From: Patescibacteria group bacterium
GTDB taxonomy: Bacteria; Patescibacteriota; Dojkabacteria; J137
Reading direction: 5' to 3'
DNA: 64,000 nucleotides
Assembly (NCBI GenBank): GCA_016861265.1
Contig: BOLA01000001.1
Location: 852,136 to 916,135 of the forward strand
The notes under the pieces are model-generated. The model saw nothing but the letters and a program-made list of their open reading frames with translations, did no database searches and had not been told where the DNA came from. The translations under genes and the position numbers were made by a program. Positions 12,667 to 29,084 of the stretch are shown here, piece after piece (position 1 is the stretch's first letter; every line of letters starts with the position of its first letter).

Positions 12667-13962
12667 ATGTTATTATTTTATATGTTTAATGAAGATGATC
12701 TTCTAAAAGGTGAAAAACCATTCAAAATCGGTGATTACTTATTACCAGGAGTTTTAGATTTAGCAGGGCAGCTAGAATTCTTGCGTACAGTTATGCCTAA
12801 CCCCGACTTAATTTACTATGGAGAATTTCCCCCCGAGTTTGAGTCTCCACTACTACCCTCCTCAATTTTAAATGAATACAGCAATGCTGCAGCAAAGTTT
12901 AGAGTCTTAATGACACTAATGGAAACTGCCGAATCAGAAAACCTATACGATTCAATAAACCAAGCCGTAGATACATATAGATCTATGTACCCTGCAGATT
13001 ATCAGGGCCTTGAAGTTACTTTCCTGGACGGGAGACTTATTGTGAGTATTTATAACCAAGATAACTTGAGTCTTCAGGTAATTATTGAAAAATCCGACAA
13101 ATCATGGCATGTCACTAAGTCTATGATTCATTTTAAACTCTACGAATATAACTTTGAGATTAGGGACAATTTACAAGGTAACGAGGTTGTAATTATTTAT
13201 CCTCAAAACGATAATCTCGGCATTATTCCTCATGTTCGAGATTATTCAGCAATTGCCTCCATAAGAATTCCTAACGACGAAGTAGAATGGTATATAAATA
13301 TTTTTAATGTAATAGAACTCAGAGACGATAAAGATACTGTCTTATATGATTATTTTACTATAGCCCCAGGCAGGAAAAGAGTCATTGATATTCATGAAGG
13401 CAATAATGTATACGAACAAATAATAATTTATCCTAGTGACCACGGCATAAGCATTCAAAAAATAGAAAGGACGAAACAAGTTCTGCCTGATGGGCAAATA
13501 GAAACATTGAGTCGATATTTAAAAGTTGTGGAAGCGGAAATTGATATAAATGCATTAAAAGTACGAGCATTAATTTCTAGAAATCAAAATCTTGAATCTC
13601 GTGTAAGTTTAGTAAAAAAACAAGGTTCTGAACTTCCAAAATCTACAAGAGTAGAATATTTTAAAAGAAAAGGAATTAAATCCTTAGATGTCAGATTTAG
13701 AGATGACATGTCCATTAGCTCAATTCTTGTCGATGAAAAGTTATATTTAGATGGTGAATTTGATTTATTTTTATCTACCGAAGGATATTATATTTTTGTA
13801 CTTGGCGATAACTCAAGGCGAATACCGGTAAGTTTTAGTACTGATTACACAATAGCTGTTCCAGAAGAAAAAATTGGGCCAGTATTTGATGTTGTGGATA
13901 ATAACATGATATTACCATTCTCTAGTGCATCGGGATTGGTAAGAGTAGTCAGTTTGAATTAA
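12667..13962 (+). CDS. Hypothetical protein
   Basis: 431-aa ORF, no recognised motif. Confidence 0.7.
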   Translation: MLLFYMFNEDDLLKGEKPFKIGDYLLPGVLDLAGQLEFLRTVMPNPDLIYYGEFPPEFESPLLPSSILNEYSNAAAKFRVLMTLMETAESENLYDSINQAVDTYRSMYPADYQGLEVTFLDGRLIVSIYNQDNLSLQVIIEKSDKSWHVTKSMIHFKLYEYNFEIRDNLQGNEVVIIYPQNDNLGIIPHVRDYSAIASIRIPNDEVEWYINIFNVIELRDDKDTVLYDYFTIAPGRKRVIDIHEGNNVYEQIIIYPSDHGISIQKIERTKQVLPDGQIETLSRYLKVVEAEIDINALKVRALISRNQNLESRVSLVKKQGSELPKSTRVEYFKRKGIKSLDVRFRDDMSISSILVDEKLYLDGEFDLFLSTEGYYIFVLGDNSRRIPVSFSTDYTIAVPEEKIGPVFDVVDNNMILPFSSASGLVRVVSLN

Positions 13963-14005: not shown

Positions 14006-14047
14006 GAACCCGGAATAATTAGCGTATTGCCCAGTACTTCACAAAAG

Positions 14048-14119
14048 TGAAGTGACCGGGACTCGAACCCGGAACCAACTGCTTAAAAGGCAGCTGCTCT
14101 ACCATTGAGCTATCACTCC
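14048..14119 (-). tRNA. tRNA-Lys(TTT), CCA not encoded
   Basis: Reverse complement GGAGTGATAGCTCAATGGTAGAGCAGCTGCCTTTTAAGCAGTTGGTTCCGGGTTCGAGTCCCGGTCACTTCA folds as a cloverleaf; TAGACA-N17-TATAAT upstream. Confidence 0.95.
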
Positions 14120-14474
14120 ATACACTAAGGCTCGTGAATTATATCTAATCCCCAGGCTCTTGTCTACCGAGTTTGAATTCAGATACCAGAAGTAGGTAAT
14201 AACTTTAGCGATTATTACTCAAAATTTCCGTTATTAATACGCCTGCCGATAAGATTTTACAACTTTATGACTTCTTCTGCAAAATTAAAGAAATCGCCCA
14301 AAGCCTTTTAGAGCCTAATCAATCGCAATTGATGCTTTAATGTCTAAAAGTATATATAAGTTTCTGGCCAAATTATCACAAAGCTTAGTCGCTAATTACA
14401 TGAAAATGTAATGATACTAAATTCCCCCTGATCATAGTAATTTAACCTTCGGATAGAAAAGGCAAAATATCCTC

Positions 14475-14840
14475 CTAGCTATCAAAACTACCGGATGATG
14501 CATATATCTCATATTCGCTAGTAGTATCAACTGGGAAATCTAGTATTTTAGTCTTAGATATAATCCTCCCTATGCCTCGTCTGTTTATAACGACTTGTGC
14601 GACATTATCTTTCACTCCTAAAAATTCTCCATTAATTACTTCTGGTAATACGTGAGGAGGTTTATGAATTATTGCAACCTTATACCCTGTCTCTATTTCC
14701 TTAAAACTGGAGTACCTTATAAATCCATCTGATTCAATCTTCTCACGAAGTTGCCTAGTATGGGATTGAATGTGAACCTTGTCATAACCATAACCACTGC
14801 CCAAATCACCACTTTCTAGTCCGTACCAATTGAAGTCCAT
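14475..14840 (-). CDS. Hypothetical protein
   Basis: 121-aa ORF. Confidence 0.55.
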   Translation of the reverse strand: MDFNWYGLESGDLGSGYGYDKVHIQSHTRQLREKIESDGFIRYSSFKEIETGYKVAIIHKPPHVLPEVINGEFLGVKDNVAQVVINRRGIGRIISKTKILDFPVDTTSEYEIYASSGSFDS

Positions 14841-14853
14841 ATGATTACATTTA

Positions 14854-16014
14854 TTAAAGTAATTTGATTTTTTGTATTAAGTAATTAAAATTCTTTCTGT
14901 AGTCAAAGCCAGATGATACTGAATAACTTTTTGTATTTTTAAATATTTGTATTAGTTCTTTTCTTCTTTCTTCTGTTTTTAAATTGGTCATTTTTGTTAA
15001 ACTCTTGAAAAGCATAACCGTAGGTGCAAGGCTTACTTCTAAAAATCTATCAACAATTTCAGTGAGGCTATTTTTCTTAATTGATATGCCAGACTTATTT
15101 TTATCTAGAGAAACCTTTAAAACATGGGTTATTTGATCGGTTGAAAGATTACCTTTACTTTTGGATAGAGCATCAAAATATATCGACATTTGTTCTTTCT
15201 TCCCAAGTTCGAATAGTTCTTTTTTCTTCATATGTGCCATATCTAAAAAAGCATTATTGATAATGCCAGCGTTAACAAAGAAATCTTTAAATTCTAAGTA
15301 TGTACCGACTCTGATATTGAAATAGTTTCTTATATTATAATTAAGTATCGCCCCATATCTCGTAACATATGTTGTTTCCTCTGTAATGATTTGCCAGCCA
15401 CTTGCTAAAAACAACAAAGCAAAAGTTGTTTTCCCACCTAAAGATGAATTACTGAGAAGAATATTGTTTTTCCCATCACTTACTAACCCACCATGCACTG
15501 CGTATAAGTCACCGTATAATAAGTACGGTGTAAGCAATAAAATATTAATCATAGTCAATGCTTTTTTCTCATTTTTAACTGCCATTAAGCATTCGCTAGA
15601 TTCCGTATTATAAATATAATAAAAATGATCGTAGCATTTGATAATGTAAAATTTATTATCAACTGTGCATTTTGAGCCAGAGGTATTGTGTGTTGCTAAG
15701 TTAAATTTCTTTACTCTCGGATTAGTAGACCATTCCGCGTGTAGAAATATCAACTCAATCTTTTGGAAAATATCTTCGTTTTCTAAGATAAAAGCTTTGA
15801 TGTTATTACGATTATTTTTCTGTGAAGTGCTTAATAGTGTATTGAAAGAATGACTAAATTCTATTAAGTGATCAGAACATAAGTCATAATTACAAGTTAT
15901 AGTTGTTATTAGATTATCACTAATCAAACTATGTACAGTATGGCTTGATTCATTTGTTATAGCTTTTAAACTATCAATAAAAATTTCGTTTACTTTTGCG
16001 GTTAAATCATTCAT
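14854..16014 (-). CDS. HPr kinase-like P-loop protein
   Basis: LYAVHGGLVS...ILLSNSSLGGKTT...GWQIITEE fits the HPrK-like H-x-GxGKT-DD pattern, with EE in place of DD. Confidence 0.7.
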   Translation of the reverse strand: MNDLTAKVNEIFIDSLKAITNESSHTVHSLISDNLITTITCNYDLCSDHLIEFSHSFNTLLSTSQKNNRNNIKAFILENEDIFQKIELIFLHAEWSTNPRVKKFNLATHNTSGSKCTVDNKFYIIKCYDHFYYIYNTESSECLMAVKNEKKALTMINILLLTPYLLYGDLYAVHGGLVSDGKNNILLSNSSLGGKTTFALLFLASGWQIITEETTYVTRYGAILNYNIRNYFNIRVGTYLEFKDFFVNAGIINNAFLDMAHMKKKELFELGKKEQMSIYFDALSKSKGNLSTDQITHVLKVSLDKNKSGISIKKNSLTEIVDRFLEVSLAPTVMLFKSLTKMTNLKTEERRKELIQIFKNTKSYSVSSGFDYRKNFNYLIQKIKLL

Positions 16015-16028
16015 AGAAAATCCAGTGT

Positions 16029-17051
16029 TTACTTATAATTTTTTATAATATCGTATGAAAATAGTCTATCTATCAAACTTCCAGTATCTTCCATCTTTTT
16101 TTCAGGCTTATACTGGTCAAAAATTACTGTCATAATATTATCGCTTATATAACTATATTTCTGATAAAGTAAATTAACATTGTTTAATGACAGTATCTCT
16201 GGAAAAATCTCAGCGGTATAATTTAGTGTAAAAAACACATGTTTATCAAAACCGTACTTTAGAGAGTCTTCGAATATTTGGTCGATGTTAATTTGTTCGA
16301 AATATTTTTGGATAAAAGTATATATATCAACAAATTTATATAAATCCAATACCTTTCTTTTTTTTACAAGGTCTAATAAGGCTGAATCTTTGTAAAGGTG
16401 GCTACACAGATGGATAAATAGGTGTTCTTCTTTTAACGAATAGATTGAAAAGTTGTCATCACTAGAAATGAGAACTCGTTCCTCCAAAAAATAATCTACC
16501 ACTCCATTAGAGGTGTTTGGCGTCCAGTCTAAAGAAAAATTAACATCGATATCAATAGTTTTAATAGTTATTTCATTAAGTATTTTAACAAAAGGAGCCA
16601 TTTCACCTCTAGTATTTATAGATTGCGTAAGTGTGTGTTGGTCAAATTCGTTAACAATATCTTTACTATAATCATACTTGCCTTGCAAAAAACCTAAATC
16701 ATACAAAATCCCTTTTACTTTTTGAATTGATTTTTTTGATACTAATATATCTATATCATTAAAAGCTCTAGTACCTGAGGGGTAAATAGTACTTGATAAG
16801 ACTGATCCTTTTAAGAATGTATGTTTTACATTTGCTTCCGATAACTTTGAAGAAATGCTTTTAATATATTCTTTTTGTAAATCTGTTCTTATGCTTTGTG
16901 CCTGATGGATCATATAAATTGTGAAAAAAACAGGAAAATCTAGTTTTCTTACATCGATGGAGTTTACAACTTGATATGCAAGGCCAGCAACTCGGTGGTA
17001 GCATAAGTATCCTAAAACTTCGATCCAATTTAAAGTTTTATCACTCAGCAC
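16029..17051 (-). CDS. Nucleotidyltransferase family protein (NTP_transf_5-like); true start may be ATA at 17123
   Basis: FLKGSVL...YP...R.FNDIDILV and HLCSH motifs. Confidence 0.8.
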   Translation of the reverse strand: MLSDKTLNWIEVLGYLCYHRVAGLAYQVVNSIDVRKLDFPVFFTIYMIHQAQSIRTDLQKEYIKSISSKLSEANVKHTFLKGSVLSSTIYPSGTRAFNDIDILVSKKSIQKVKGILYDLGFLQGKYDYSKDIVNEFDQHTLTQSINTRGEMAPFVKILNEITIKTIDIDVNFSLDWTPNTSNGVVDYFLEERVLISSDDNFSIYSLKEEHLFIHLCSHLYKDSALLDLVKKRKVLDLYKFVDIYTFIQKYFEQINIDQIFEDSLKYGFDKHVFFTLNYTAEIFPEILSLNNVNLLYQKYSYISDNIMTVIFDQYKPEKKMEDTGSLIDRLFSYDIIKNYK

Positions 17052-17208
17052 TTCAATAAGTCTTTCATTTTTTTTATTGCCTAATTTTACTATCTCTAGT
17101 ACAGCATTATGTTCTTTTTTTATAGTGGTTTCTTTATTAAATATATAACAGGAATGATAATATGAAGACGAGGTAAAGTCAAATCTGTCCAGTAAATCAG
17201 TTGATTAG

Positions 17209-18144
17209 ATGCAATTAGTATGGTATAAATCTTTTTTAGAATTAAAAAGTTTTATGAATATGCTTGATAACAAATATCATTCTTCAAAAATCTGTTTAGG
17301 AACATGGCGAATGGGAGGAGACGTTAAGCCAAATCCTAATAATGATGATGAAAAAGACATTGATGCCATTAAATATGCAATCAGTAAAGGTATTTCACAT
17401 ATAGATACCTCAGAAAGCTATGCAGATGGCAAATCTGAGTTGCTCGTTGGAGAAGCAATAAAAAAGATATCTAGGGACAAATATTTTTTAGCTACTAAAG
17501 TTCGTGAATATAATCTTTCTTATGACAGTGTTATTAGCTCCTGTGAAAAATCTCTACAAAGACTTAATGTTCCAAGCATTGACTTATATTACATCCATAA
17601 ACAAAATCCACTCATTCCCATTGAAGAAACAACTAGAGCCTTAAATAAGCTCATTGATACTGGACTTATTAAACATATAGGGCTGAGTAATGTCGGAATT
17701 GCTACGATAAAAAAATATTCTCAACTACTAAACAGTCCAATTTATGCAGTTCAAAATCAATATAATCTCGTTTGTCGTGAGTCTCAAAGAAAAGGTGTTA
17801 CAGATTATTGTAAACTAAGTGGAATTCAATTCATTGCGTGGAGACCTATTCTACTTTCATATCCGGGAGTTGTAGATCCCTATTATCATACTGGCACGTA
17901 CAGATTATTGGATGAAATGGCTAAAAAATATAACAAAACAAATACACAAATTGTGGCCAAGTGGCTTGTACAACAAGATGGAGTTTCTATTGTTTTTAAA
18001 AGTTCTAACAAAGAACATATTGATGAAATTTTAGATATTGAAAATTTTAAGCTTTCCGATAGTGATTGGGAAATATTAGATAAAGATTTTCCAGTGCAAA
18101 AAGATTTAGGGTGTACTGCTGACGTTTATTTTGAGTTATCGTAA
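17209..18144 (+). CDS. Aldo/keto reductase (probable start 17254)
   Basis: LGTWRMGG, IDTSESY, ATKV, IDLYYIH, IGLSN, QNQYNL. Confidence 0.93.
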   Translation: MQLVWYKSFLELKSFMNMLDNKYHSSKICLGTWRMGGDVKPNPNNDDEKDIDAIKYAISKGISHIDTSESYADGKSELLVGEAIKKISRDKYFLATKVREYNLSYDSVISSCEKSLQRLNVPSIDLYYIHKQNPLIPIEETTRALNKLIDTGLIKHIGLSNVGIATIKKYSQLLNSPIYAVQNQYNLVCRESQRKGVTDYCKLSGIQFIAWRPILLSYPGVVDPYYHTGTYRLLDEMAKKYNKTNTQIVAKWLVQQDGVSIVFKSSNKEHIDEILDIENFKLSDSDWEILDKDFPVQKDLGCTADVYFELS

Positions 18145-18224
18145 CAAATCGTTATCCTTATATCGCAATTTAGTTTGCTTAATGAGATAATACAATTTAT
18201 TTTACCAAGTCTAGAAAATGATCC

Positions 18225-19373
18225 ATGGTTAATATTATACAAAGAGATACAAAAATCAAAGAACCATATGAATCCCTTTACAAATTGAATATTGGCCTAT
18301 CTATTGACGAGTTTGAAGCAGAAGAGGCAATGTTGGAGATTTTGAAGGAAGAAAATTTACAAAAAAGAGTAAGTCTTTTAACAATGTTACTAAATGGGGT
18401 TATGATTAAGGGACCTTCTGTTTCTGAAGTAAAAGGATTAATAAACGCCTCATTATCGTTGGATGGTATATTAAAAACACCAAGACCAAAAATTATTTTG
18501 CCAAATAAAGAACTCTTAGTTGGTGTAGCGTCAAGTGGTAAAAAGGGGTTTAAAACAATAAATATTACTACACCTGCTAGTTTTGTTGCGGCTGCTTGTG
18601 GTGCATTTACTGCAAAGGCATGTTCACATTCAACGTCTTCCAAAACAGGTTCCTCTGATCTTTTAGAAATAATTGGTATCAATATAAATATCCCTTTCAA
18701 AGAAAAAGTCACAATATTACAAGAAAAGAGAATTGCTTTTTTTTCAATTGAAGACACAACTCCAAATTTTGCTAAAGTTTATGAAGGCGTATTTTATGCT
18801 CCGCACGCCATGAGTTTTGCCCTAGCTGGACTTAGCTTTCCGGTCAAAATTGATGCTCTTGTATATGGTTTGTCACATCCCAATGTTAAATTGTCGTTAG
18901 AGGTGTATAAAGAATATGGTTTTAAAAATGTTTTAGTCTACTCATCTAGTGAAGACGGTGTACATTATTTAGATGAATTACCAATCTCTGGTTACGCTAA
19001 TATCATAGGTATGAAAAATGGCAAGGTTGTCCGGAAAATATCAGCTAATATAAAAGATACATTTCCTTTCAATCCAAGTAATAGTTTAAAAGAATTAGCC
19101 GAAAAGGAAACGAAAATTGATAATGTCAAGGCTTCTCTAAGAGTACTAAATGGTATAGGCTTAGAAAGCCATACTGATGCTATATGCATTAACGCAGCAC
19201 CTATTATTCTTTTAGCGGGAAAGGTTAAGTCGTTAAAAGAAGGATATTTATTGGCAAAGAAAAATATTCAGGAAGGAAAAGTATTTAAATTGTTTTTAGA
19301 AGTGGTTGAATTGTATGGGGGAGATTTAAATCAAATAACGAATCTATTATCAGAATCTGATCCTTTAATTTGA
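18225..19373 (+). CDS. Anthranilate phosphoribosyltransferase (TrpD)-like glycosyltransferase family 3 protein with divergent motifs
   Basis: SSGKKGFKTINITT...AKACSHSTSSKTGSSDLLE aligns to TrpD GTGGD..TFNIST...AKHGNRSVSSKSGSADVLE; LDEL retained. Confidence 0.8.
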   Translation: MVNIIQRDTKIKEPYESLYKLNIGLSIDEFEAEEAMLEILKEENLQKRVSLLTMLLNGVMIKGPSVSEVKGLINASLSLDGILKTPRPKIILPNKELLVGVASSGKKGFKTINITTPASFVAAACGAFTAKACSHSTSSKTGSSDLLEIIGININIPFKEKVTILQEKRIAFFSIEDTTPNFAKVYEGVFYAPHAMSFALAGLSFPVKIDALVYGLSHPNVKLSLEVYKEYGFKNVLVYSSSEDGVHYLDELPISGYANIIGMKNGKVVRKISANIKDTFPFNPSNSLKELAEKETKIDNVKASLRVLNGIGLESHTDAICINAAPIILLAGKVKSLKEGYLLAKKNIQEGKVFKLFLEVVELYGGDLNQITNLLSESDPLI

Positions 19374-19465
19374 AAGCAAGGTATCAGATATTTAAAAAGA
19401 ATTATGCTCTATATGCCTGTCTGTGCTATAATCCATTAATATTTATGTTTGTTAGATTATAAAAT

Positions 19466-20578
19466 ATGAATTCAAATTTTGAGGATCCGAATAAAGAAAA
19501 AGAGGAAAGACAGACTATTATAGAAAGGCCTATTGCTGAACAGCCGCTCGCATCTTTTGAGCAACAGGAGAGTATCCAATGGAAAGTTGAAATCTTTACA
19601 GGTATTAGACCAACTGGGGATTTGACGGTGGCTAATTTTGTAGGGGCAGTAGCACCTATTCTTGAATTGCAAAATAATGGCAAACATCCTATGGTTTTTG
19701 TAGCTGATCTTCATGCAATGACAGATAAAGAACCTAAGATAGCAATGCAATTCACCAATGATGTTGTTGCAGATTATATAGCTTTAGGACTCAATCCAGA
19801 GCAAACGGATATATTTGTACAGTCTACAATTGCTCAACAGGTTGGACAACTCACATTATATTTAATGAGACATATTTCAATTGCTGAGCTTATTAGAGTA
19901 CCTACATTGAAAGATAAACTGAAAGATGGTCAAAGAGAAGAAAATGCAAGTGCTTTACTAGCAACTTACCCTGTCATGATGGCTGCAGATATTTTAATAC
20001 AGAGAGCAAAAGAAGTTCCTGTTGGAGAAGATCAAGTTCCACATATTGAAGTGACAAGATTACTTGCTAAACGCTTTAACGCACAATATGGTCAAACCTT
20101 GTATGTACCCAAAGTTCAACAAGTAGAAACATTAAGAATACGATCTTTGAAAGGTGAAGGTAAGATGAGTAAAACAAATCCCAATGGTGCTATTTTTTTA
20201 ACTGATAGCCTTGATGAGGTTGCAAAAAAAATTAAAAAGGCTGAAACAGCATTTGCAGGAGAAATGAGTCCTACTCTAGCAAGTCATGTTACTCTAGCAA
20301 AAAATCTAACCTATAAACCAGAAGATAAAGTTCTAATAGATGAGATAATAGAAGCACATATGCAGGGGCAAACTGTAATGGGTGATTTTAAAAAGATATT
20401 TACAGAAATTACATTAAGGTTTATAGAAAATTTCCAACAAAGAAGGGCACAAGTAATGTCCGATCCTACATATATTCCATCTATTCTAGAATACGGAGCT
20501 AAAAAGGCAAGAGAAAATGCGGACGAAACATTAGGTTCCGTTTACGAAGCTATGACTAGTGGCGCAAAGGAGGGATAA
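19466..20578 (+). CDS. trpS: Tryptophanyl-tRNA synthetase, paralogue A
   Basis: TGIRPTGDLTVAN (TIGN-type), ADLHA, YPVMMAADIL, VPVGEDQ, KMSKT. Confidence 0.9.
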   Translation: MNSNFEDPNKEKEERQTIIERPIAEQPLASFEQQESIQWKVEIFTGIRPTGDLTVANFVGAVAPILELQNNGKHPMVFVADLHAMTDKEPKIAMQFTNDVVADYIALGLNPEQTDIFVQSTIAQQVGQLTLYLMRHISIAELIRVPTLKDKLKDGQREENASALLATYPVMMAADILIQRAKEVPVGEDQVPHIEVTRLLAKRFNAQYGQTLYVPKVQQVETLRIRSLKGEGKMSKTNPNGAIFLTDSLDEVAKKIKKAETAFAGEMSPTLASHVTLAKNLTYKPEDKVLIDEIIEAHMQGQTVMGDFKKIFTEITLRFIENFQQRRAQVMSDPTYIPSILEYGAKKARENADETLGSVYEAMTSGAKEG

Positions 20579-20628
20579 GATTCTTAGGAGTGCAAAAAAT
20601 ATGGTATATATAAATTTGTATATTTCTT

Positions 20629-21726
20629 TTATGATTTGATCTGGTGTGCAAATTTTTGTGCTTGTTTACTAATCAGGTCTGCATCTTCAAAATAATTAAT
20701 CCCGATTGCACTTTTAACTCTCTGTGTCGTTTGGGAAGCCACATTACGTGCTTCTCGGCTGCCTTCAAGCAATATTTTATAAACTTGTGGAATGTTTTTT
20801 TGATATTCCTCTCTCCTAGTACGAAGTGGCATTAATTCTTCTTGAATAACATCATTTAAGAAACTTTTTATTTTCGTATCGCCTAGACCTCCTCTTCTGT
20901 AATGATCTTTCAGCTCATCTAAATTATTATAACCAGCTAGGTATCTTTGTAAATGATTAGGTTTACAAAAAGCATCTAAATAAGTAAAAACTGGATTATT
21001 TTCAACAGTGCCGGGATCTTCTACTTTTAAATGATTGGGATCTGTAAACATCCCCATAATTTTTTTCTTAATTTCCTCTGGCGAGTCTGCAAGGTAAATA
21101 CCATTATTTAAAGACTTGCTCATTTTCGCTTTCCCATCTAAGCCTGGTAATCTGCTACAAATATCATTCTCTGGTAATGATGCATTTGGTTCTACCAAAG
21201 TTTCTCCATAGATAGAATTAAAACTTCTAACAATTTCTCGTGTTTGTTCTATCATCGGTAGTTGATCGTCACCTACTGGAACAATATTAGCGTCAAATGC
21301 TGTAATGTCAGCAGCTTGGCTCACTGGATATGTCAAGAATCCAGCAGGAATACTTTTATTAAAACCTCTTAACTTTATTTCTTCCTTTACAGTAGGATTC
21401 CTTTGTAATCTTGCTACTGTAACTAAATTCAGAAAATAATATGTTAACTCACATAGCTCAGGAATCTGGGACTGAATAAAGATAGTAGATTTATTGGGGT
21501 CAATACCACATGCTAAATAATCTAATGCTACCTCTATTACATTTTGTCTTACTTTTTCAACATTGTCTGCGTTATCAGAAAGTGCCTGAGCATCCGCGAT
21601 CATAATAAAGATACCATCAAACTTTCCAGAGTTTTGCAATTCAACTCTTTTCTTTAATGATCCAACATAGTGACCTAAATGCAGTTTTCCTGTGGGCCTG
21701 TCCCCAGTTAGAATAATATTTTTCAT
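20629..21726 (-). CDS. trpS: Tryptophanyl-tRNA synthetase, paralogue B (TGDRPTG/HLGH type)
   Basis: TGDRPTGKLHLGH, ADAQA, YPVSQAADI, VPVGDDQ, KMSKS. Confidence 0.95.
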   Translation of the reverse strand: MKNIILTGDRPTGKLHLGHYVGSLKKRVELQNSGKFDGIFIMIADAQALSDNADNVEKVRQNVIEVALDYLACGIDPNKSTIFIQSQIPELCELTYYFLNLVTVARLQRNPTVKEEIKLRGFNKSIPAGFLTYPVSQAADITAFDANIVPVGDDQLPMIEQTREIVRSFNSIYGETLVEPNASLPENDICSRLPGLDGKAKMSKSLNNGIYLADSPEEIKKKIMGMFTDPNHLKVEDPGTVENNPVFTYLDAFCKPNHLQRYLAGYNNLDELKDHYRRGGLGDTKIKSFLNDVIQEELMPLRTRREEYQKNIPQVYKILLEGSREARNVASQTTQRVKSAIGINYFEDADLISKQAQKFAHQIKS

Positions 21727-21738
21727 AAAGAAACAGTC

Positions 21739-22935
21739 TTAATTCTTATATAAAAATAGTTCGTTGTATGTATCAATATCTTTTTCATATTTCGATTCTT
21801 CCCAAAGGGTTTTAATTTCAATAAAAAACTTCAAATATTCATACTTTATTTTAGTCCAATCTTCGTAATTTTGTTCTAGATTTTCAAAAGCACTTTTGGC
21901 TTCTATTAACTTGTCGGGACTCCAATTAGAAGCAAGTATCATCATTTGTAAAATAACCTCCTCATTTCTCTTCCCACAGTCAATAATTTTCCTATGTAAT
22001 TCCTCTTCGCTATCTCCAACATTAATAGAAGAGTCTGGAATGCTTTTTGACATTTTAACATAAGGGAAAAGACCACCAATAAGCTTTCCATACAATGCAC
22101 CGATTTCAGCATCTTGATGAACCAAGCTATCCACGCCTCCACTCTTCACTTTCATCCTATTAAGTGCAATTCTTGCTAAATACGGATGGTGATGTTCTTC
22201 CAATCCTACCGGCACTATTACACCTCGTTTTTTGTCACGAACTATCGGTAGGATAATATCTGTCATTGTATATGTCCTACTCACCATTTTTGAGAAATCG
22301 TTCCCAAGCAATTGTAATCTTTTATACATATCGTTAGTTACTTCACGATTTTCGAGCAAATCTTCAGTACTTAAAACACTAGAAACAAGTGAAAACACTC
22401 GGGAATGATCATGAAAGTTATGTGTTCTAATTTCACCGTTTTTTTCATTAAATCCCAATTTCTTAATAAAAGATATAAACTGATAGGAATTTCTTATTAG
22501 CTCATTTAATGGCTTTTGTCTTGAATTTAATGCACTTAATTCAGAAATGATTATATGAGTATAAATACCTGTTTGTTTTTGAAGTTCAAGTACTCTAAAA
22601 ATAGAAGAAAGTGTACCGGCCGTTGGGGAATTAGTAGGACCAAATCCTGTTACAATAGCTAACTCGGTCGTAGGAATTTTATTAAAGATTTCTAAATTAT
22701 CGTAACACAAATATTTAGAATTTAATTCATTGTGCTTCCCATAGCCATGTAATTGAATATTATTAGGAAACTTAACATACTTAAAATCTTCGATTATTTT
22801 GCCAAGTTTGTTATTGGAATATTCCAAATCCTTTAATGCATGCTTAAGATCATTTGCAACTTCTTCAATCGATTTATTTTGTTTCTCTGCTATTTCTTTT
22901 AATTCATCATTTGACAAATTTAAATTGGTTTTCAT
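21739..22935 (-). CDS. Highly divergent class Ic (TrpRS-like) synthetase homologue, paralogue C
   Basis: TGFGPTNSPTAGT, TMTDIILP, VPVGLEEHHH, KMSKSIPDSSI; N-terminal extension. Confidence 0.75.
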   Translation of the reverse strand: MKTNLNLSNDELKEIAEKQNKSIEEVANDLKHALKDLEYSNNKLGKIIEDFKYVKFPNNIQLHGYGKHNELNSKYLCYDNLEIFNKIPTTELAIVTGFGPTNSPTAGTLSSIFRVLELQKQTGIYTHIIISELSALNSRQKPLNELIRNSYQFISFIKKLGFNEKNGEIRTHNFHDHSRVFSLVSSVLSTEDLLENREVTNDMYKRLQLLGNDFSKMVSRTYTMTDIILPIVRDKKRGVIVPVGLEEHHHPYLARIALNRMKVKSGGVDSLVHQDAEIGALYGKLIGGLFPYVKMSKSIPDSSINVGDSEEELHRKIIDCGKRNEEVILQMMILASNWSPDKLIEAKSAFENLEQNYEDWTKIKYEYLKFFIEIKTLWEESKYEKDIDTYNELFLYKN

Positions 22936-23300
22936 GATTCACAATAGAATGTTTATAAATAAGTATTAAACGCTACACTGTAGCGAAAATTTAACATTTA
23001 TAAGATGTAGTGTCAATTTGTTTGTATTTCATATGAATTCAAAAAATCAGACATTAATGCCATATTTTTTTATTAAAGAATTTATAATTTATTAAATTTC
23101 TTTAAAAAACTACAATAATAGATGTTATTGCAATTTCTTACAAAAATATACATACCCCACTAATTCCATTTCTATCCATTGGTTTGTCCAAATATCAAAA
23201 ATAAATACAGGTACTTTCTTCCCAGATTATATATTTTTCTTGACAAACATAAAAAAGATGGAATAAGATTAGTTAGTTCCTAAATATTAATACTATAAGT

Positions 23301-24104
23301 ATGAACATAAAAGAAGTGGTGATTGAGCCAATATATAAATTATTTAGAGCAGGTCAAAACGCATATTATGAGGCTGGGTTAAATCGTTATCAAGGAGATA
23401 AGTATGACTTAACAACCTTACAAATATCAAATTACTTTTCATTTAGGACTTCTCCGTTTAATGTAGATTTAAGGAAGTTAGCATACTATACAGAACATCA
23501 AATGATACCAGCTCCTAAAAGAGTTGGTATCAATTCTTTTTTAGGTGGAAGTATAGGTAAATATAAATACAAAACATCATTAATGCTTTGGTATATTGGT
23601 GAACTTAAAAAAAGAGGCATTAAAAGTCAGGATGAATTAAGACTACACATTTATAACTACTTTCACACTGAAAATTTACCTCCAAAGCCTGTTTCAGATA
23701 CGCCTTTTGCTGAAAGGTATATTTATACTTGGAGAATAAGCAAAATAACACCTGTACTTTTACCTGAATTTGAAGACTTTAATATTTATATGGAAAATGA
23801 AGAGCCAATTCCTGCAAAAAAGGCCACCTACTATTTTGAAGGTAAGCCATTTGATCAAATTCTCTTCTTTGAACGAAACCTAACAGAAAAAGAAAATGAA
23901 TTTCTTAAGATCTTACGAAAAAACAAAGAGTTTTTAAGTGCAAGTGGTATCAAAACCTATATTCTCAATTCTAAAGAAGAAGTTGAACAAAAAGACATTA
24001 TGGATTTATTCGTGTTTAAAGACTATCCAATAGTTTCAGATGATGATGATAAAAAATCTTATCGAGATTTACTTAATAAAAAATATACTTTTCAAAATAT
24101 ATGA
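23301..24104 (+). CDS. MerR-like HTH-containing protein
   Basis: LRKLAYYTEHQMIPAPKR...KY...ELKKRG resembles a MerR HTH; TTGACA...TAAGAT upstream. Confidence 0.55.
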   Translation: MNIKEVVIEPIYKLFRAGQNAYYEAGLNRYQGDKYDLTTLQISNYFSFRTSPFNVDLRKLAYYTEHQMIPAPKRVGINSFLGGSIGKYKYKTSLMLWYIGELKKRGIKSQDELRLHIYNYFHTENLPPKPVSDTPFAERYIYTWRISKITPVLLPEFEDFNIYMENEEPIPAKKATYYFEGKPFDQILFFERNLTEKENEFLKILRKNKEFLSASGIKTYILNSKEEVEQKDIMDLFVFKDYPIVSDDDDKKSYRDLLNKKYTFQNI

Positions 24105-24346
24105 TCAAACAAAACGATGAACTGTATGAAATAATATCTTTAAAGGTAAGAAAGCATAATTTGTTGAAAATGATCAAGCCTAAAGCAATTGAAAATCTAA
24201 TCAAGATGATACTTTGGCAGAAAGATGGGGTAATAACACTGATAATTAATAATGCGGAAATTACTAAGTTAAAACACGATTTTGAGATACGTTTAAATGA
24301 GGAAGGAGATTTAAAGACTGACGATAAGACAAAATTTATTAAGTAA
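24101..24346 (+). CDS. Hypothetical protein
   Basis: 81 aa, ATGA overlap with the upstream gene. Confidence 0.6.
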   Translation: MIKQNDELYEIISLKVRKHNLLKMIKPKAIENLIKMILWQKDGVITLIINNAEITKLKHDFEIRLNEEGDLKTDDKTKFIK

Positions 24347-24477
24347 TTCTAATTAACCTTAGCTAACTTGATTGTTTAGAGAGGTCTAAGTTTCAGAAAA
24401 AAGAACATGTTTCTTAATCTGAGATTTGGATCTCTTTTTTTTGTATATATTTTACTTTTTAACAATTTACCAAAAAT

Positions 24478-24876
24478 ATGTCGCTAAACACACCAAAGAT
24501 CATTAAGAACTTTTTGAATGCTAATGAGAAAACAGAGAATAACTTTATCACTGCACTACTGTTAGATAAATCACTATTATTAAAAGAAAAAGAATTGTTG
24601 CTTTTTATCTTTCATTTAGCAAATCGTTCTGGTGATTTAAAAGTAAGTACCAAACAATTGGCTACATTTACTCTTACAGATTTAGAAAAACTCAGGATTG
24701 CCTACAGTGCTAATGCGAGTATAGCTTTTCAAAAACTTCACAGATTAGAAATTATTAATTGGAATAAAACTGAACATACCTTTGAAATCAATAACGACTG
24801 GATAGATGAAATATTAACTAGAGATCAAAACACTAGACTAGAGTTCTTTTACAAGTTATTACTCAAACAAAACTAA
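24478..24876 (+). CDS. Hypothetical winged-helix-like protein
   Basis: 132 aa, coupled to the next gene by TAATG. Confidence 0.6.
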   Translation: MSLNTPKIIKNFLNANEKTENNFITALLLDKSLLLKEKELLLFIFHLANRSGDLKVSTKQLATFTLTDLEKLRIAYSANASIAFQKLHRLEIINWNKTEHTFEINNDWIDEILTRDQNTRLEFFYKLLLKQN

Positions 24877-25811
24877 TGTCTGAAAAGGTTGTTTTAAAAA
24901 TCTCAAAAGAGTTAGATAGAGGTAAAGCCTTTGTGCAAATTTTATCTAACCTAATTCGTAGTCCTGAAATTTCAGATTCAGAATTTAGAACATTCTTAGC
25001 TTTACTTGATTTTAAATGGAATGGGCAATCTAAAATCTTTCCGTCATTAACAACTCTTGAAAAAATACGTCATAAAAGCAGAAAAAGAATTGTTGCTCAT
25101 TTAAAAGGTTTAAAACAGATAGGTTTAATCTCTTATCAGAAATCCTCTGAAAGAAATAGTAATGAATATTTTTTTAACAAGATTGAATTTGAAGCAATAG
25201 ATAAAACGCCACTAGTAGACAAAAGTAAACTAGTGTACAAAACTACACCATCGCTAGGGTCGAAAAGTACACTACAGATAGTGGCGAAAACTACACCCGA
25301 AAGATACGAATATAAGAATACTAAATTTAATAAGACGTTAGCTGAAAACGACTTAAAAAAAATTGCTGATAAAAAGTCACAACGAAGTGACTTTGGAAGT
25401 TTCAAAGTTGATCCCAAAACAGAAGATTTTACTAAATACAATCCAGAAGCACTTGAATATGCAAAGTTACTGGACAATCTTGAAGATATTAAGTTTTATC
25501 AAAACTTGCTTGATGAAAAACAATTTACTCACGAAGAATTGCAATCTGCTTTCTGGAAAACATGTAACGAAATAAATACAGATAAAAAAGATGGCAAAAT
25601 TTTCTGGAAAAAGCCAGGAGCTTTATTTAATAAAAACTTGAAAGCAATTTTAGAACGAAAGAAACAAATTAAGAACGGCTTAGATAAATTAACAGACAGT
25701 AAAACAATTCCTAAAGAAAAAACAGAAAACGAAAAGTTGTCAGAATTTAATAAAAAACGAAATCATGCACTTAATTTATCTCAGAAATTACTAAATAGAG
25801 AAGGAATATAA
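24876..25811 (+). CDS. HTH (HTH_36-like) replication initiator-like protein
   Basis: IFPSLTTL...SRKRIVAHLKGLKQIGLI...SNEY N-terminal wHTH typical of phage/plasmid initiators; internal DNA repeats. Confidence 0.7.
   Translation: MSEKVVLKISKELDRGKAFVQILSNLIRSPEISDSEFRTFLALLDFKWNGQSKIFPSLTTLEKIRHKSRKRIVAHLKGLKQIGLISYQKSSERNSNEYFFNKIEFEAIDKTPLVDKSKLVYKTTPSLGSKSTLQIVAKTTPERYEYKNTKFNKTLAENDLKKIADKKSQRSDFGSFKVDPKTEDFTKYNPEALEYAKLLDNLEDIKFYQNLLDEKQFTHEELQSAFWKTCNEINTDKKDGKIFWKKPGALFNKNLKAILERKKQIKNGLDKLTDSKTIPKEKTENEKLSEFNKKRNHALNLSQKLLNREGI
25213..25296 (+). repeat. Four imperfect 18-bp direct repeats (iteron-like) inside the rep-like gene
   Basis: tagtagacaaaagtaaac (25213), tagtgtacaaaactacac (25231), tagggtcgaaaagtacac (25255), tagtggcgaaaactacac (25279). 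Confidence 0.7.
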
Positions 25812-25884
25812 CTGATGAACGAAGTGATGAAACTATGGTGAAACTGCTAATCCGAAAAAATGACTATTTTACGATCTTTAAAAA

Positions 25885-26031
25885 CCTACCAAAGCGAGAG
25901 CCACTAAACCTTACTAACTCCGAACGGGAGTGATTGGGTGCCCTCCTATCGGAGCCCACCCAATCACTCCCTCGACAAAGTTACACGTTGTGTTGTTTGT
26001 CGTCTGAGTTAGTAAGGTTTAGTAGGGTAGG
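25885..26031. other. Large branched stem-loop (candidate oriT, single-strand origin or small RNA)
   Basis: Perfect 18-bp outer stem 25903-25920/26006-26023, 15-bp arm 25926-25940/25957-25971, 7-bp arm 25973-25979/25996-26002. Confidence 0.7.
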
Positions 26032-26170
26032 TAGTAGGTAGTTAGTAATAGTAAGTTAGGTAGGATAGATAGAGAAGAATAAAGAAGAGAGATTGAGAAG
26101 ATAGAGATTTTAGGTAGGTTAGTTTTTAAGTATTTGTTGAGATTTATTATTTTTTAATTTTTTTATATAA

Positions 26171-27148
26171 ATGATTGGTTCAAATATTTTAAAAAGTTCT
26201 GATGTGGAAATTTTGTATACAGTGAGTATTTTTAAGTTTATTCCGCTTAAAGTTTTGGCTGATATTTTGATTGCTAAGAATATTTATAGTTTTTATCAAG
26301 GAGTTGCCAGAAGTATTACAAGACTCGAAAAACAGGGGTTGTTAAGAACTAAATACTATGCAAATCATTCAAAAATCATATTTTTATCAAAGACAGGTGC
26401 AGGAGTTTTATCAGTGAATAAAGGTATTCCACTAGAAAACATTAACTGTCCTGACCGAATTACTAATGTAAATTTCTTTGCCATTGAACATACAATTGAA
26501 GTGTCTAAATTGTTTTACATATTTTCTACTGAGTGCGAAAGATATGGATTTAAGCTAGTAGAATTCCAAGGAGATGCTTATCAAAGATACATATATTCTT
26601 TTAAGGAATGGATTAACAATGACCAAAAGAAAATAACTAAATATGTAATTCCAGATGCTTTTGTAAGAATTGATGTTGGAGATGAAAAGATTTATGAATT
26701 TTATGTTGAATATGATAAAGGTTCTGAATATTCAAAAGATATTGCAGAAAAATATCAAAAGTATTTTGAATACTATTCCCTTTCAGAAAAGTACAAGCTT
26801 AATAACGATGATAAGTTTCCATCTGTTTTATTCATAACGACAACTAAGAAAAGAATATTGAACCTTATTCCTGATATGCCTAAAAAGGATGGGAATAGAT
26901 ATGAGCTATACGGAAACAGAGGCTTAAGGAATGTAGTATTTCAAGGAATTGAAAACGCAAAGGGAGATACGAATCACGATAGTTACAGAATTCACAAGTT
27001 TTTGAAAGATGAAAACAAGTTTCTGTTCATTGAGTACGAAAGCCTATTAAAGAATAAGTTTGAAGCTACTTGGTTAAACTTTATTCAACAGCCAATTTCC
27101 TTACATTACTTTTTAACAAATCCATTTATTGAACCTAAATCTTATTGA
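26171..27148 (+). CDS. Replication-relaxation (Replic_Relax) family protein
   Basis: N-terminal wHTH, EHTIEVSK, IPDAFV...FYVEYDKGSE...KYQKY...FPSVLFIT. Confidence 0.8.
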   Translation: MIGSNILKSSDVEILYTVSIFKFIPLKVLADILIAKNIYSFYQGVARSITRLEKQGLLRTKYYANHSKIIFLSKTGAGVLSVNKGIPLENINCPDRITNVNFFAIEHTIEVSKLFYIFSTECERYGFKLVEFQGDAYQRYIYSFKEWINNDQKKITKYVIPDAFVRIDVGDEKIYEFYVEYDKGSEYSKDIAEKYQKYFEYYSLSEKYKLNNDDKFPSVLFITTTKKRILNLIPDMPKKDGNRYELYGNRGLRNVVFQGIENAKGDTNHDSYRIHKFLKDENKFLFIEYESLLKNKFEATWLNFIQQPISLHYFLTNPFIEPKSY

Positions 27149-27407
27149 TGAAAATCTAAAGTTTATAAATCAATTTGATATTGATTCTAAAGAAATTTCT
27201 GCTGAAAGAGCCAGAGAAATCTTGGGTTCAAAGGCTGACGGCTTGAATGATGATGAATTACAGGTTGTTATAAATATGGTGATGACTATGGCTGAAATAG
27301 CTGTCGGAGATTTTTTTAATAAAAAAGTACCAGAAGATGAAAAGAAGTTATATAATTTAACTGCAAATCAATCAAAAAGGGTAAAACGAAAGAAAACTAG
27401 ACTTTAG
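27129..27407 (+). CDS. Hypothetical protein
   Basis: 92 aa, TTG start, ISAERAREILG...LNDDEL; lies directly upstream of the recombinase. Confidence 0.55.
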   Translation: MNLNLIDENLKFINQFDIDSKEISAERAREILGSKADGLNDDELQVVINMVMTMAEIAVGDFFNKKVPEDEKKLYNLTANQSKRVKRKKTRL

Positions 27408-27509
27408 TCTGTTATCTTTACAGATAAGGGGCTACTTGGAACAGTCTTTACCCAAAGATTGATTTGCACCAGGTAGTCCCTTTTCTGTTTAGTTTTTACT
27501 ATTTAAAAT

Positions 27510-29084
27510 ATGAACAAACCAAAAGCAGTCATTTACACTAGAGTTTCATCAGATAGACAGATTGATAATACAAGTCTTGCCGATCAATTAAAAAAAGGTA
27601 AAGAGTATTGTGAGCGAAGAGGCTTAGAATTCGTTACAGAATTTAGAGAAGAAGGAGAATCAGCAGAACTAGCAGATAGAACAATTTTGAAAGAAGCATT
27701 GAATTATTGTGGCTTAAAGAAAAATGATATTACATATTTTCTAGTATTTAAGTTCGATAGATTCTCTCGTTCTGTTGAAAACCACCACCTAATTAAAGCT
27801 ATATTAAGCCGTAGTGGAGTTAAATTGATCTCAATGACAGAAGAGACACCTGACACTCCGGCAGGAAGATTAACAGAAAATATGCTTGCAACAATAGCCC
27901 AGTTTGATAACGAAGTCCGAACTGAAAGATGTATTAATGGGATTAAAGCAAAATTAAGACAAGGTATTTGGGTTTATGATTCTCCACTTGGATATATGAA
28001 AGATACAAACTTTAAAGGTAGTGGTGCTAAACCAGATATTCCAGATCCAGCAAAGTTTGAAATTGTAAAAGAAGGATGGAAAATGATGCTAACTGGAAGA
28101 TATAGGTCAAAAGATGTTTTAGAGTTTTTTCATAAAAAGGGATTAAGAAATAGGTATGGGAATAAATTAATTGCACAATCTGTTTCAAAGATTTTTTACA
28201 ATAAGTTCTATGCAGGATTATTGTTTGTTGATAGTTTTGGAATTGAAGAAAAAGGACAGCACCAACCAATGATTACGCTAGATGAATTCTATGCAGTTCA
28301 AGCAATTTTGGCTAAATACAATAATGGAAATCAAGTTAAGCATTTAGGTTACAATCCAGAATTTCCACTGAATAAAACAATTAAGTGTACTTGTTGTGGG
28401 AAATTTATGACTGGTGCTTGGTCTAAACAAAAAGGAGTATTTGGATATTACGCGTGCAGAAGACCCGAATGTAAGGAAAGAGATAAAATCAAGAAAGCTG
28501 ATGCAGAGACTTCATTTATTGAGCTATTGGAGAGAATTACTCCATCTCAAGAATTAGTAGATTTATACAAGGAAGCAGTTACCAAAGTATATTTGAAAAA
28601 ACTTCGAGAGAAAGAAGATATACAAAGGCATATTAAAAGTGAACTAAATGAGCTTGAGGTTAGATTATCTAAACTTGAAGAGCTTGTTGAAACAGATGTC
28701 TATTCTGTTGAAAAGTTTAAAGAAAAGTCTAAACCACTTGTACATGAGATTGCAGTTAAGAAAGTATCACTTTCTGAAACAAACATTGATTTATATGATG
28801 CGGAGGAATGTGTTAATTACTCCGTAAATTTTTTACAACTTTTACCTAAATATTGGATATCTCTGTCTGTAAAGGCAAAACATAGATTGCATGAGGTACT
28901 TTTCCCCGAAGGTCTAATTCTCGAAAATGGAAGAGTTACAACCAAGGCATTAGCCCAGTTCTATAATGATATTGAAGCAATTTCAGATGGTAATGTCCCA
29001 TCTGGTACACCCGGAGGGAGTCGAACCCCCAACCTTCGGTTCCGAAGACCGCTGCTCTATCCATTGAGCTACGGGTGCGCATAA
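27510..29084 (+). CDS. Large serine recombinase (resolvase + recombinase + Zn ribbon + coiled coil)
   Basis: YTRVSS, KFDRFSR, PLGY, Y.G...H.PMI, CTCC...YYAC...C; the last ~26 codons overlap tRNA-Arg antisense. Confidence 0.93.
   Translation: MNKPKAVIYTRVSSDRQIDNTSLADQLKKGKEYCERRGLEFVTEFREEGESAELADRTILKEALNYCGLKKNDITYFLVFKFDRFSRSVENHHLIKAILSRSGVKLISMTEETPDTPAGRLTENMLATIAQFDNEVRTERCINGIKAKLRQGIWVYDSPLGYMKDTNFKGSGAKPDIPDPAKFEIVKEGWKMMLTGRYRSKDVLEFFHKKGLRNRYGNKLIAQSVSKIFYNKFYAGLLFVDSFGIEEKGQHQPMITLDEFYAVQAILAKYNNGNQVKHLGYNPEFPLNKTIKCTCCGKFMTGAWSKQKGVFGYYACRRPECKERDKIKKADAETSFIELLERITPSQELVDLYKEAVTKVYLKKLREKEDIQRHIKSELNELEVRLSKLEELVETDVYSVEKFKEKSKPLVHEIAVKKVSLSETNIDLYDAEECVNYSVNFLQLLPKYWISLSVKAKHRLHEVLFPEGLILENGRVTTKALAQFYNDIEAISDGNVPSGTPGGSRTPNLRFRRPLLYPLSYGCA
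29003..29078 (-). tRNA. tRNA-Arg(TCG), CCA encoded
   Basis: Reverse complement GCACCCGTAGCTCAATGGATAGAGCAGCGGTCTTCGGAACCGAAGGTTGGGGGTTCGACTCCCTCCGGGTGTACCA. Confidence 0.95.

Follow-up and report, generated by a model that had tools for sequence, protein, structure and literature searches.

We analysed a 64,000-nucleotide stretch of DNA from a Patescibacteria group bacterium (GCA_016861265.1, contig BOLA01000001.1, positions 852,136 to 916,135 of the forward strand; hereafter the window) that carries a seven-gene cassette with three genes of the tryptophanyl-tRNA synthetase (TrpRS) family. The cassette probably makes N-ribityl-tryptophan-AMP or a close derivative that would act on TrpRS, with two intact TrpRS proteins, TrpRS-A (A) and TrpRS-B (B), serving as protection; we infer every chemical step of this proposal, and the observed evidence covers gene identities, folds, active-site changes, linkage, fusion, matched synthetases, selection and insertion. 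An open reading frame (ORF) check of the window placed the seven genes in three units, in agreement with an earlier model-made annotation of the letters (the sequence-only reading). Proposed roles are named after the tyrocitabine (tyb) pathway described below.

14854..16014, minus strand: PEPCK/HPr-kinase-fold P-loop protein, clade-specific accessory, with invariant HGG, SLGGKTT and EET
16029..17123, minus strand: NTP_transf_5 nucleotidyltransferase, clade-specific accessory, with a probable ATA start at 17123 (the first start codon of a common type is the GTG at 17051)
17209..18144, plus strand: aldo-keto reductase (AKR, family match), proposed TybE role as reducer of the Amadori ketone
18225..19373, plus strand: TrpD-fold phosphoribosyltransferase-like enzyme (Glycos_transf_3) with a rewired acceptor site, proposed TybC role
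19466..20578, plus strand: TrpRS-A (tRNA-synt_1b), intact, bacterial-type, of a cassette-borne lineage, proposed self-protection
20629..21726, minus strand: TrpRS-B (tRNA-synt_1b), intact, TrpRS-II-type, nearest to Bacilli-type cassette copies, proposed self-protection
21739..22935, minus strand: 'TrpRS-C' (C), class Ic synthetase-derived adenylating enzyme, HIGH changed to TAGT and KMSKS retained, proposed TybB role

In the tyb pathway, as outlined in those parts of a review that deal with it (PMC13235161), TybC glycosylates tyrosine with phosphoribosyl pyrophosphate (PRPP) via an Amadori rearrangement, TybE reduces the product, the tyrosyl-tRNA synthetase (TyrRS)-like TybB puts AMP on the carboxylate, a nonribosomal peptide synthetase (NRPS) acylates the compound to an inactive form and TybA exports it. 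The same parts state that the target of tyrocitabine is not known, and they report tyb-related clusters from archaea and from Candidatus bacteria (PMC13235161). The constant core of the cassette family maps one to one onto the first three of these steps, which argues for a tryptophan variant of tyrocitabine. In this variant the TrpD-like enzyme would transfer ribose-5-phosphate from PRPP to the alpha-amino group of L-tryptophan to give an Amadori ketose, the AKR would reduce the ketose to N-ribityl-tryptophan, the phosphate would either be removed by a phosphatase encoded elsewhere in the genome or be kept, and C with ATP would adenylate the carboxylate and then let the product go rather than charge a tRNA with it. 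This compound would resemble Trp-AMP and block TrpRS, hence translation, and A and B would protect the producer by resistance or dosage. In the subclade with an AKR, the kinase and nucleotidyltransferase may modify or mask the product, standing in for the acylating NRPS of the tyb cluster; this is the weakest step. A Trp-AMP-like product had already been suggested from the letters, and that part stands; the acceptor is likely the alpha-amino group of tryptophan and not, as then proposed, indole or anthranilate.

The window proteins matched the Pfam families NTP_transf_5, aldo-keto reductase, Glycos_transf_3 and, three times, tRNA-synt_1b. The real start of the AKR is perhaps about 15 codons downstream of 17209, and the frame of the nucleotidyltransferase stays open for 24 codons further 5' to position 17123; the codon there is ATG in homologues but ATA in the window. 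Against their nearest homologues all seven genes had ratios of nonsynonymous to synonymous substitution (dN/dS) of 0.05-0.16 (19 finite values from 21 pairs, many with dS near saturation), and the cleanest values, all against the near-twin locus L039, were 0.10 for A, 0.07 for B and 0.07 for C. Judged from reading frames and substitution rates, the seven genes are real and under purifying selection. Pseudogene-like ratios, which the sequence-only reading had named as a result that would count against it, were not found, and pseudogenes were rejected on these ratios and on the invariant motifs. That the genes are decaying paralogues which happened to pile up on an island is hardly credible: the A and B pair is a local mosaic and the nucleotidyltransferase has an ATA start, but conserved linkage, fusions, invariant motifs and the dN/dS values refute such a pile-up for the family.

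C had been taken for a third TrpRS subtype. It scored only 30.5 bits on TIGR00233 (cut-off 176.75), is about 24% identical to A, and was rejected as a working TrpRS on this score and on the loss of HIGH and of the amino-binding tyrosine. At the HIGH position its homologues carry TAGT or TGGT in a tryptophan-associated clade and HxGT in a tyrosine-associated clade (Trp and Tyr clades, defined below), and KMSKS is invariant. The predicted model of C (pLDDT 91.8) matched archaeal/eukaryotic TrpRS best (PDB 3a04, 3jxe, 3tze; TM-score 0.67, 19% identity), with TyrRS also among its top matches, so the class Ic synthetase-like Rossmann fold of a tyrocitabine-type cluster is present. A direct sequence search of PDB with C alone gave no match, whereas profile and fold comparisons did. 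Relative to the archaeal/eukaryotic-type TrpRS, C shares KMSKS and the Asp132 position and differs in having TAGT and changed amino-binding residues. Gln147 of bacterial TrpRS is a residue of the tryptophan pocket. In the same enzyme Tyr125 contacts the amino group and Asp132 the indole nitrogen, according to the portion of the literature consulted (PMC2879500). Profile alignment with solved TrpRS placed Ser219 of C at Tyr125, Thr223 at Met129, Asp226 at Asp132 and Glu247 at Gln147. Among 74 aligned C rows the Tyr125 position was Ser, Asp, Ala or His in all 74 and Tyr in none, and Asp226 and Glu247 were invariant (74/74). With the Tyr125 and Gln147 positions altered and Asp132 and KMSKS kept, the pocket would be wide enough and suitably charged to take an N-substituted aromatic amino acid. 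The pockets of Trp-clade and Tyr-clade C differ at positions 95, 105, 134, 222 and 223.

C also retains about 100 helical residues after KMSKS, and its alignment with archaeal TrpRS spans 373 columns. This domain favors an alternative in which the tryptophan-derived adenylate is an intermediate that C passes to another acceptor (carrier protein, peptide, sugar or tRNA). The end product would then not contain AMP, and Trp-tRNA or Trp-AMP would come from the extra TrpRS as substrate. Carrier proteins and AMP-binding or radical SAM enzymes in some loci (L067, L068, L015) point the same way, as do the kinase and nucleotidyltransferase pairs that modify peptides elsewhere, as described in part of PMC8498205. 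Yet no acceptor gene is conserved across loci, and in the tyb precedent, as far as the review sections describe it, the adenylate is set free (PMC13235161). We consider transfer to such an acceptor rather unlikely.

The TrpD-like protein belongs to the fold family of TrpD (PDB 4yi7, 4gtn) and keeps the residues on the PRPP and metal side (Lys131, the SS..GS loop, Asn113 and Asp250). Where TrpD has GTGGD, KHGN and an arginine-bearing helix, the TrpD-like protein has SSGKK and KACS and has lost the arginine-bearing segment; the lost residues are, we take it, the anthranilate binders of TrpD. Its score on TIGR01245 was 127 bits against a cut-off of 199. A remnant of tryptophan synthesis was rejected on the replaced motifs, the score below cut-off and the genome search, in which neither trpA nor trpC was found. 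The fold of the reductase varied by C clade (MDR, NAD-epimerase, SDR or AKR), and an AKR was present in the window and in 18 of the 27 rows of its C clade, giving the linked reductase that the TybE role calls for. The swapping of unrelated reductase folds by clade suggests that the reduction step is needed. The sequence-only reading had left the AKR outside the core, but a reductase is constant across loci and the AKR would be the core reduction step. Beside one Trp-type cassette (L008:3610-7070) we observed a second TrpD-like gene together with BtpA, a Trp-repressor-family gene and a pyridoxal phosphate-dependent decarboxylase.

Linkage of C to the TrpD-like gene was tight. One search returned 412 homologues of C, and another 171 of the TrpD-like protein. 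C was present in 30 of the 33 genome loci found with the TrpD-like alignment, and the three misses end 0.15-2.4 kb upstream of the TrpD-like gene. Searching metagenomes with the C alignment gave 221 loci; of the best 80, 43 had the TrpD-like gene, and the other 37 all had under 7 kb of sequence on one side. Every C locus flanked by 7 kb at either end contained the gene (25/25, window included, not dereplicated). Twelve homologues, selected mainly by length, were scanned, and three of them were natural fusions of the TrpD-like protein and C. Gene order was freely shuffled among cassettes while the gene set recurred in many genomes, which argues that the grouping is not due to chance. The only constant parts across loci were C, the TrpD-like enzyme, a reductase and a cognate synthetase. 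A gene-neighbourhood check suggested with the sequence-only reading thus found the homologues together in other genomes, and its proposal of a mobile cassette with C and the TrpD-like protein as core agrees with this linkage and with the insertion at tRNA-Arg described below.

The family has few carriers. A C homologue was found in four of 61 near relatives, the window genome included (a fifth, weak match was an ordinary archaeal-type TrpRS), and three of these four hold a different, Tyr-type version. No C homologue was found in 400 further genomes of the phylum (0/400), and none besides the centre genome among 400 scored genomes of another class. By this distribution the cassette family is rare and patchy. 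It is probably horizontally moving. Cassette-bearing genomes are small, with 29 of 33 at most 1.6 Mb.

The synthetases beside C indicate the substrate and the likely target. A and B each passed TIGR00233 with 247.9 bits, and carry TVAN, YPVMMAAD, GEDQ and KMSKT (A) and HLGH, YPVSQAAD, GDDQ and KMSKS (B). They are 32% identical to each other, so that with C still more distant the three are not recent duplicates, in agreement with the sequence-only reading. A search for a further trpS, also suggested earlier, located a separate housekeeping copy at G000:C1:453047 that is 50% identical to B. The C tree (74 rows, dereplicated at 90% from 104 sequences of at least 320 aa, quick IQ-TREE run) split with full support into clades of 15 and 59 rows, with the window in the latter, and the intact partner synthetases of these loci were typed (61 representatives of 97). 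TyrRS and a Zn-dependent dehydrogenase accompanied C in all rows of the smaller clade (15/15). In the larger clade TrpRS was present in 48 of 48 typed rows (47 with TrpRS only, one with TrpRS and TyrRS), and the 11 rows with no synthetase are on short contigs. The cassette TrpRS copies formed four separate supported lineages, suggesting that the partner was exchanged repeatedly yet stayed Trp-specific; since the single deep Trp/Tyr split is one event, this repeated replacement is the stronger argument. By the proxy of partner synthetase and pocket, the evidence points to tryptophan and not tyrosine as the substrate of the window cassette.

The nearest relatives of A are in L007, and those of B in L006 and the Bacilli-type cassettes. 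Nine loci have a pair of cognate synthetases that differ in subtype, four with TrpRS (the window, L039, L060 and L063) and five with TyrRS (L020, L021, L022, L024 and L027); an A-type together with a B-type was found only in the window and its near twin L039. As these relationships read, the apparent set of three TrpRS is one catalyst with two partners from two sources, a local mosaic. The earlier assignment of A and B to immunity agrees with their being intact extra TrpRS, which would fit a protective role.

Several further features of cassette synthetases were observed. Archaeal-labelled Tyr-type cassettes (L020, L022, L024, L027) have a bacterial-type TyrRS beside an archaeal-type TyrRS, and bacterial-labelled ones (L025, L026, L028) have an archaeal-type TyrRS; the cross-domain TyrRS may act as a sponge and not in translation. 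L111, L112 and L113 have C in three pieces beside an intact TrpRS-A-type gene, a decayed cassette that retains its synthetase. HIT-family enzymes can split aminoacyl-adenylate antibiotics, and HIT-family hydrolases were found near six cassettes (L029, L031:15989-16390, L033, L035, L038 and L048), where they are a possible second protection.

A number of observations weigh against the proposed tryptophan variant, and many concern supply. The host genome (1.18 Mb, 96% complete) yielded no PRPP synthetase, no AMP phosphorylase as an alternative ribose source, and no trpA or trpC. PRPP synthetase was above cut-off in none of the 19 genomes of the host family (G000, G001-G018), though four of them carry the TrpD-like cassette, and in only 12 of 33 cassette-bearing genomes; those that lack it include L016, a circular chromosome record. 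Both substrates must therefore be imported. In the window cassette we found no phosphatase, no NRPS and no nearby gene with at least five predicted membrane helices that could be an exporter; three HAD-family matches lie elsewhere in the host genome. The TrpD-like tree is a mosaic with no clean Trp/Tyr split, so Trp specificity rests solely on C and the partner synthetase. Of 12 Trp-clade genomes with a visible cassette TrpRS, seven had another intact trpS, one had a split copy and in four none was found, making the cassette TrpRS the sole intact copy found in those four. The description of the tyb cluster in the review sections names no canonical TyrRS (PMC13235161). The likeness to tyb would also rest on the pathway description and not on TybB and TybC sequences: a Lactobacillus iners record was absent from the 120 matches listed, 10 clusters, the plasmid searches and 400 genomes of one class. 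With PRPP synthetase, exporter and phosphatase missing, the substrates may come from the host, the ribose may have another donor, or the product may act internally.

Host-supplied substrates are the starting point of a doubtful reading in which the bacterium is a cell-attached symbiont and the cassette its weapon. Tryptophan and PRPP would be taken from the host, turned into a TrpRS poison and returned by contact without an exporter, throttling host translation to free amino acids and nucleotides, with two unrelated TrpRS as the shield. If so, the kinase and nucleotidyltransferase would either switch the poison on and off by masking it or provide activated ribose by a new route in place of PRPP synthetase. 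The same gaps in supply bear on salvage or detoxification, in which an auxotroph uses or neutralises glycated tryptophan or a tryptophan analogue. The TrpD-like and reductase steps would then run backwards, and A and B would be synthetases that tolerate the analogue. The mostly small host genomes agree with this, and the absence of PRPP synthetase from many of them is awkward for the forward direction. The most constant part of the cassette, however, is an ATP-consuming adenylating enzyme, there is no importer, and the rare and patchy distribution resembles that of conflict cassettes and not of nutrient pathways, which makes salvage quite improbable.

An internal role would involve the same chemistry, with the product staying in the cell as a switch that slows its own translation in dormancy, stress or phage response, and with A, B and the kinase/nucleotidyltransferase pair setting the threshold. 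RelA/SpoT responds to uncharged tRNA. A 480-aa RelA/SpoT adjoins the cassette in nine of 27 AKR-clade rows and is an extra copy in all five genomes checked, which would suit an uncharged-tRNA signal, and most loci have no exporter and the cassette rides a tRNA-targeting element. Against the switch, PADLOC matched none of 12 proteins (2023 library), viral contigs (searched for C and the TrpD-like protein) and phage records (searched for C) gave no relatives, a phage could equally use a resistant TrpRS of its host cell, MFS exporters are present in L067 and L119, and the window cassette has no adjoining RelA/SpoT, the only copy in its genome being at C1:267318. We regard an intracellular switch as possible but unlikely. 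The RelA/SpoT proteins of 475-490 aa (HD, synthetase and TGS domains) were seen on either side of Bacilli-type cassettes (L006:6824-8266, L010:11522-12976, L011:1429-2868, L016:1292-2767, L023:833-2263 and others), and also in L081, L095 and L097.

The kinase-like protein had no Pfam or NCBIfam match, and its profile had no sequence match in PDB. Its model has a PEP-carboxykinase/HPr-kinase P-loop fold (TM-score to PEPCK about 0.43), the Walker A motif is altered to xSSLGGKT, the acidic pair is EE, and ESM Atlas ranked an 'HPr kinase' cluster third. The HPrK-like label given from the letters is compatible with fold and cluster and unmatched in Pfam. The kinase and nucleotidyltransferase occurred together in 21 of 27 AKR-clade rows, and in the other six the contig ends close to C. 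Outside this clade the kinase was found only in L115 (partial C), and the nucleotidyltransferase without kinase in L018, L068 and L118; the pair belongs to one subclade only. Our best guess is that it masks or tailors the product. Lasso-peptide tailoring was rejected, as no lasso cyclase, protease or precursor family was among the recurring cassette neighbours.

The cassette lies within an inserted element, and the integrative module described beside it was confirmed, with HTH_36, Replic_Relax and serine recombinase genes at 24478-29084.

14047..14119, minus strand: tRNA-Lys(TTT), bordering the insertion on the left; its distance to tRNA-Arg is 52 nt in G002 and 733 nt in G003
14120..29002, no strand: 14.9-kb inserted element with the cassette and mobility genes; empty or near-empty site in G002 and G003
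14475..14840, minus strand: 121-aa ORF without family, none seen in other cassette loci
24478..27407, plus strand: mobility block with an HTH_36 replication-type protein (24876-25811), a Replic_Relax protein (26171-27148) and small ORFs
27510..29084, plus strand: large serine recombinase, 3' end overlapping tRNA-Arg
29003..29078, minus strand: tRNA-Arg(TCG), probable integration site

The spacing from tRNA-Lys to tRNA-Arg was 14.9 kb in the window, compared to 52 nt in G002 and 733 nt in G003, both congeners, so that the cassette is probably mobile and inserted at tRNA-Arg. A search for an att duplication of either tRNA end found none, and the exact left junction was not located. A viral origin was rejected, as no relatives of C or the TrpD-like protein were found in viral contigs and none of C in phage records. 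Directly upstream of the relaxase-like gene (25903-26064) a 21-nt inverted repeat pair (25903-25923 and 26003-26023) flanks a 21-bp hairpin (25926-25971), a possible transfer or replication origin. A second recombinase-bearing element without a cassette (G000:C1:570282-584378) is 81-95% like the carrier of the Tyr-type cassette in L025. A 431-aa ORF (12667-13962), which has a same-position counterpart in G001, and a 267-aa ORF (23301-24104) had no Pfam family above cut-off. Promoter and terminator scans of the window were at chance (56 versus 45.7 +/- 5.0, and 3 versus 3.1).

Cassettes elsewhere vary in their additional genes. In the Trp clade, L067 holds NRPS, TrpRS, TrpD-like, SDR, C, HAD and MFS genes. 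Plasmid pBMB172 of a cultured Bacillus thuringiensis (L119:8923-15319) has a complete Tyr-type cassette between insertion sequence elements, with C, TrpD-like, dehydrogenase, HAD, MFS and tyrS genes, and both core genes are annotated 'hypothetical'. The SDR clade of the Trp cassette (L060, L063, L067, L070, L072) has three to five radical SAM genes, and in L067 also the NRPS and MFS, which suggests a more heavily tailored product. Loci of the epimerase clade (L076, L083, L085, L087, L089, L091, L098, L105) repeatedly encode a methyltransferase and a UbiA-like membrane protein, and prenylated or methylated variants are possible. A third, more distant arrangement (L125, G397:C17:1-5389) has a TrpD-like gene that carries GSGKDD, a cut, divergent class I synthetase-like ORF and, judged by eye, CoA-ligase-like, aldehyde-dehydrogenase-like and glycosyltransferase-like ORFs.

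The cassette synthetase follows the C clade, TyrRS with one and TrpRS, replaced several times, with the other, and would thereby name the likely target; this target prediction from matched synthetases would be a new and useful element. On this basis a new antibiotic class would have a second member built on tryptophan, A and B would be candidates for resistant TrpRS, and lineages credited with making next to nothing would have a specialised metabolism. A further question that would be new is the source of activated ribose in genomes without PRPP synthetase, and how the pathway runs without tryptophan synthesis. The literature searched contained no description of a tryptophan version of the tyrocitabine pathway, though the cluster survey of Patel et al. 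2022 may list one. The sequence-only reading had called the pathway possibly undescribed; tyrocitabine has the same three-step logic, and related clusters are known from the review sections consulted (PMC13235161).

Three groups of known systems can be compared to the window. In clusters for aminoacyl-tRNA synthetase inhibitors (indolmycin, chuangxinmycin, agrocin 84, albomycin) an extra cognate synthetase in the cluster marks the target; the window shares the extra cognate synthetase and differs in having two unrelated TrpRS subtypes. The paeninodin and pseudomycoidin lasso clusters also have adjacent kinase-like and NTP_transf_5 genes, whose products phosphorylate and glycosylate the lasso peptides in the portion of PMC8498205 consulted, whereas the window pair is linked to AKR-clade C. 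The tyb cluster of L. iners is closest: it too has a reductase, a class Ic synthetase-like enzyme for adenylation and a small-genome host, and its PRPP-using enzyme would correspond to the TrpD-like protein. It uses tyrosine where the partner synthetases of the window point to tryptophan. TybB is without the tRNA-binding domain, and the helical residues that C keeps may or may not serve to bind tRNA. The window has an AKR as reductase, a kinase and nucleotidyltransferase and two intact cognate synthetases, and no PRPP synthetase was found in its host; the acylating NRPS (TybD) and exporter (TybA) are absent from it and both are present in Trp-clade L067. TybC is reportedly TrpD-like, and the tyrocitabine product is reported to have an orthoester-phosphate. 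Together, the gene content compared here indicates that the window cassette works like tyb but is not a strict member, given its proxy substrate of tryptophan and the missing NRPS and exporter, and the pathway is a variant of the known tyrocitabine logic and not a new kind.

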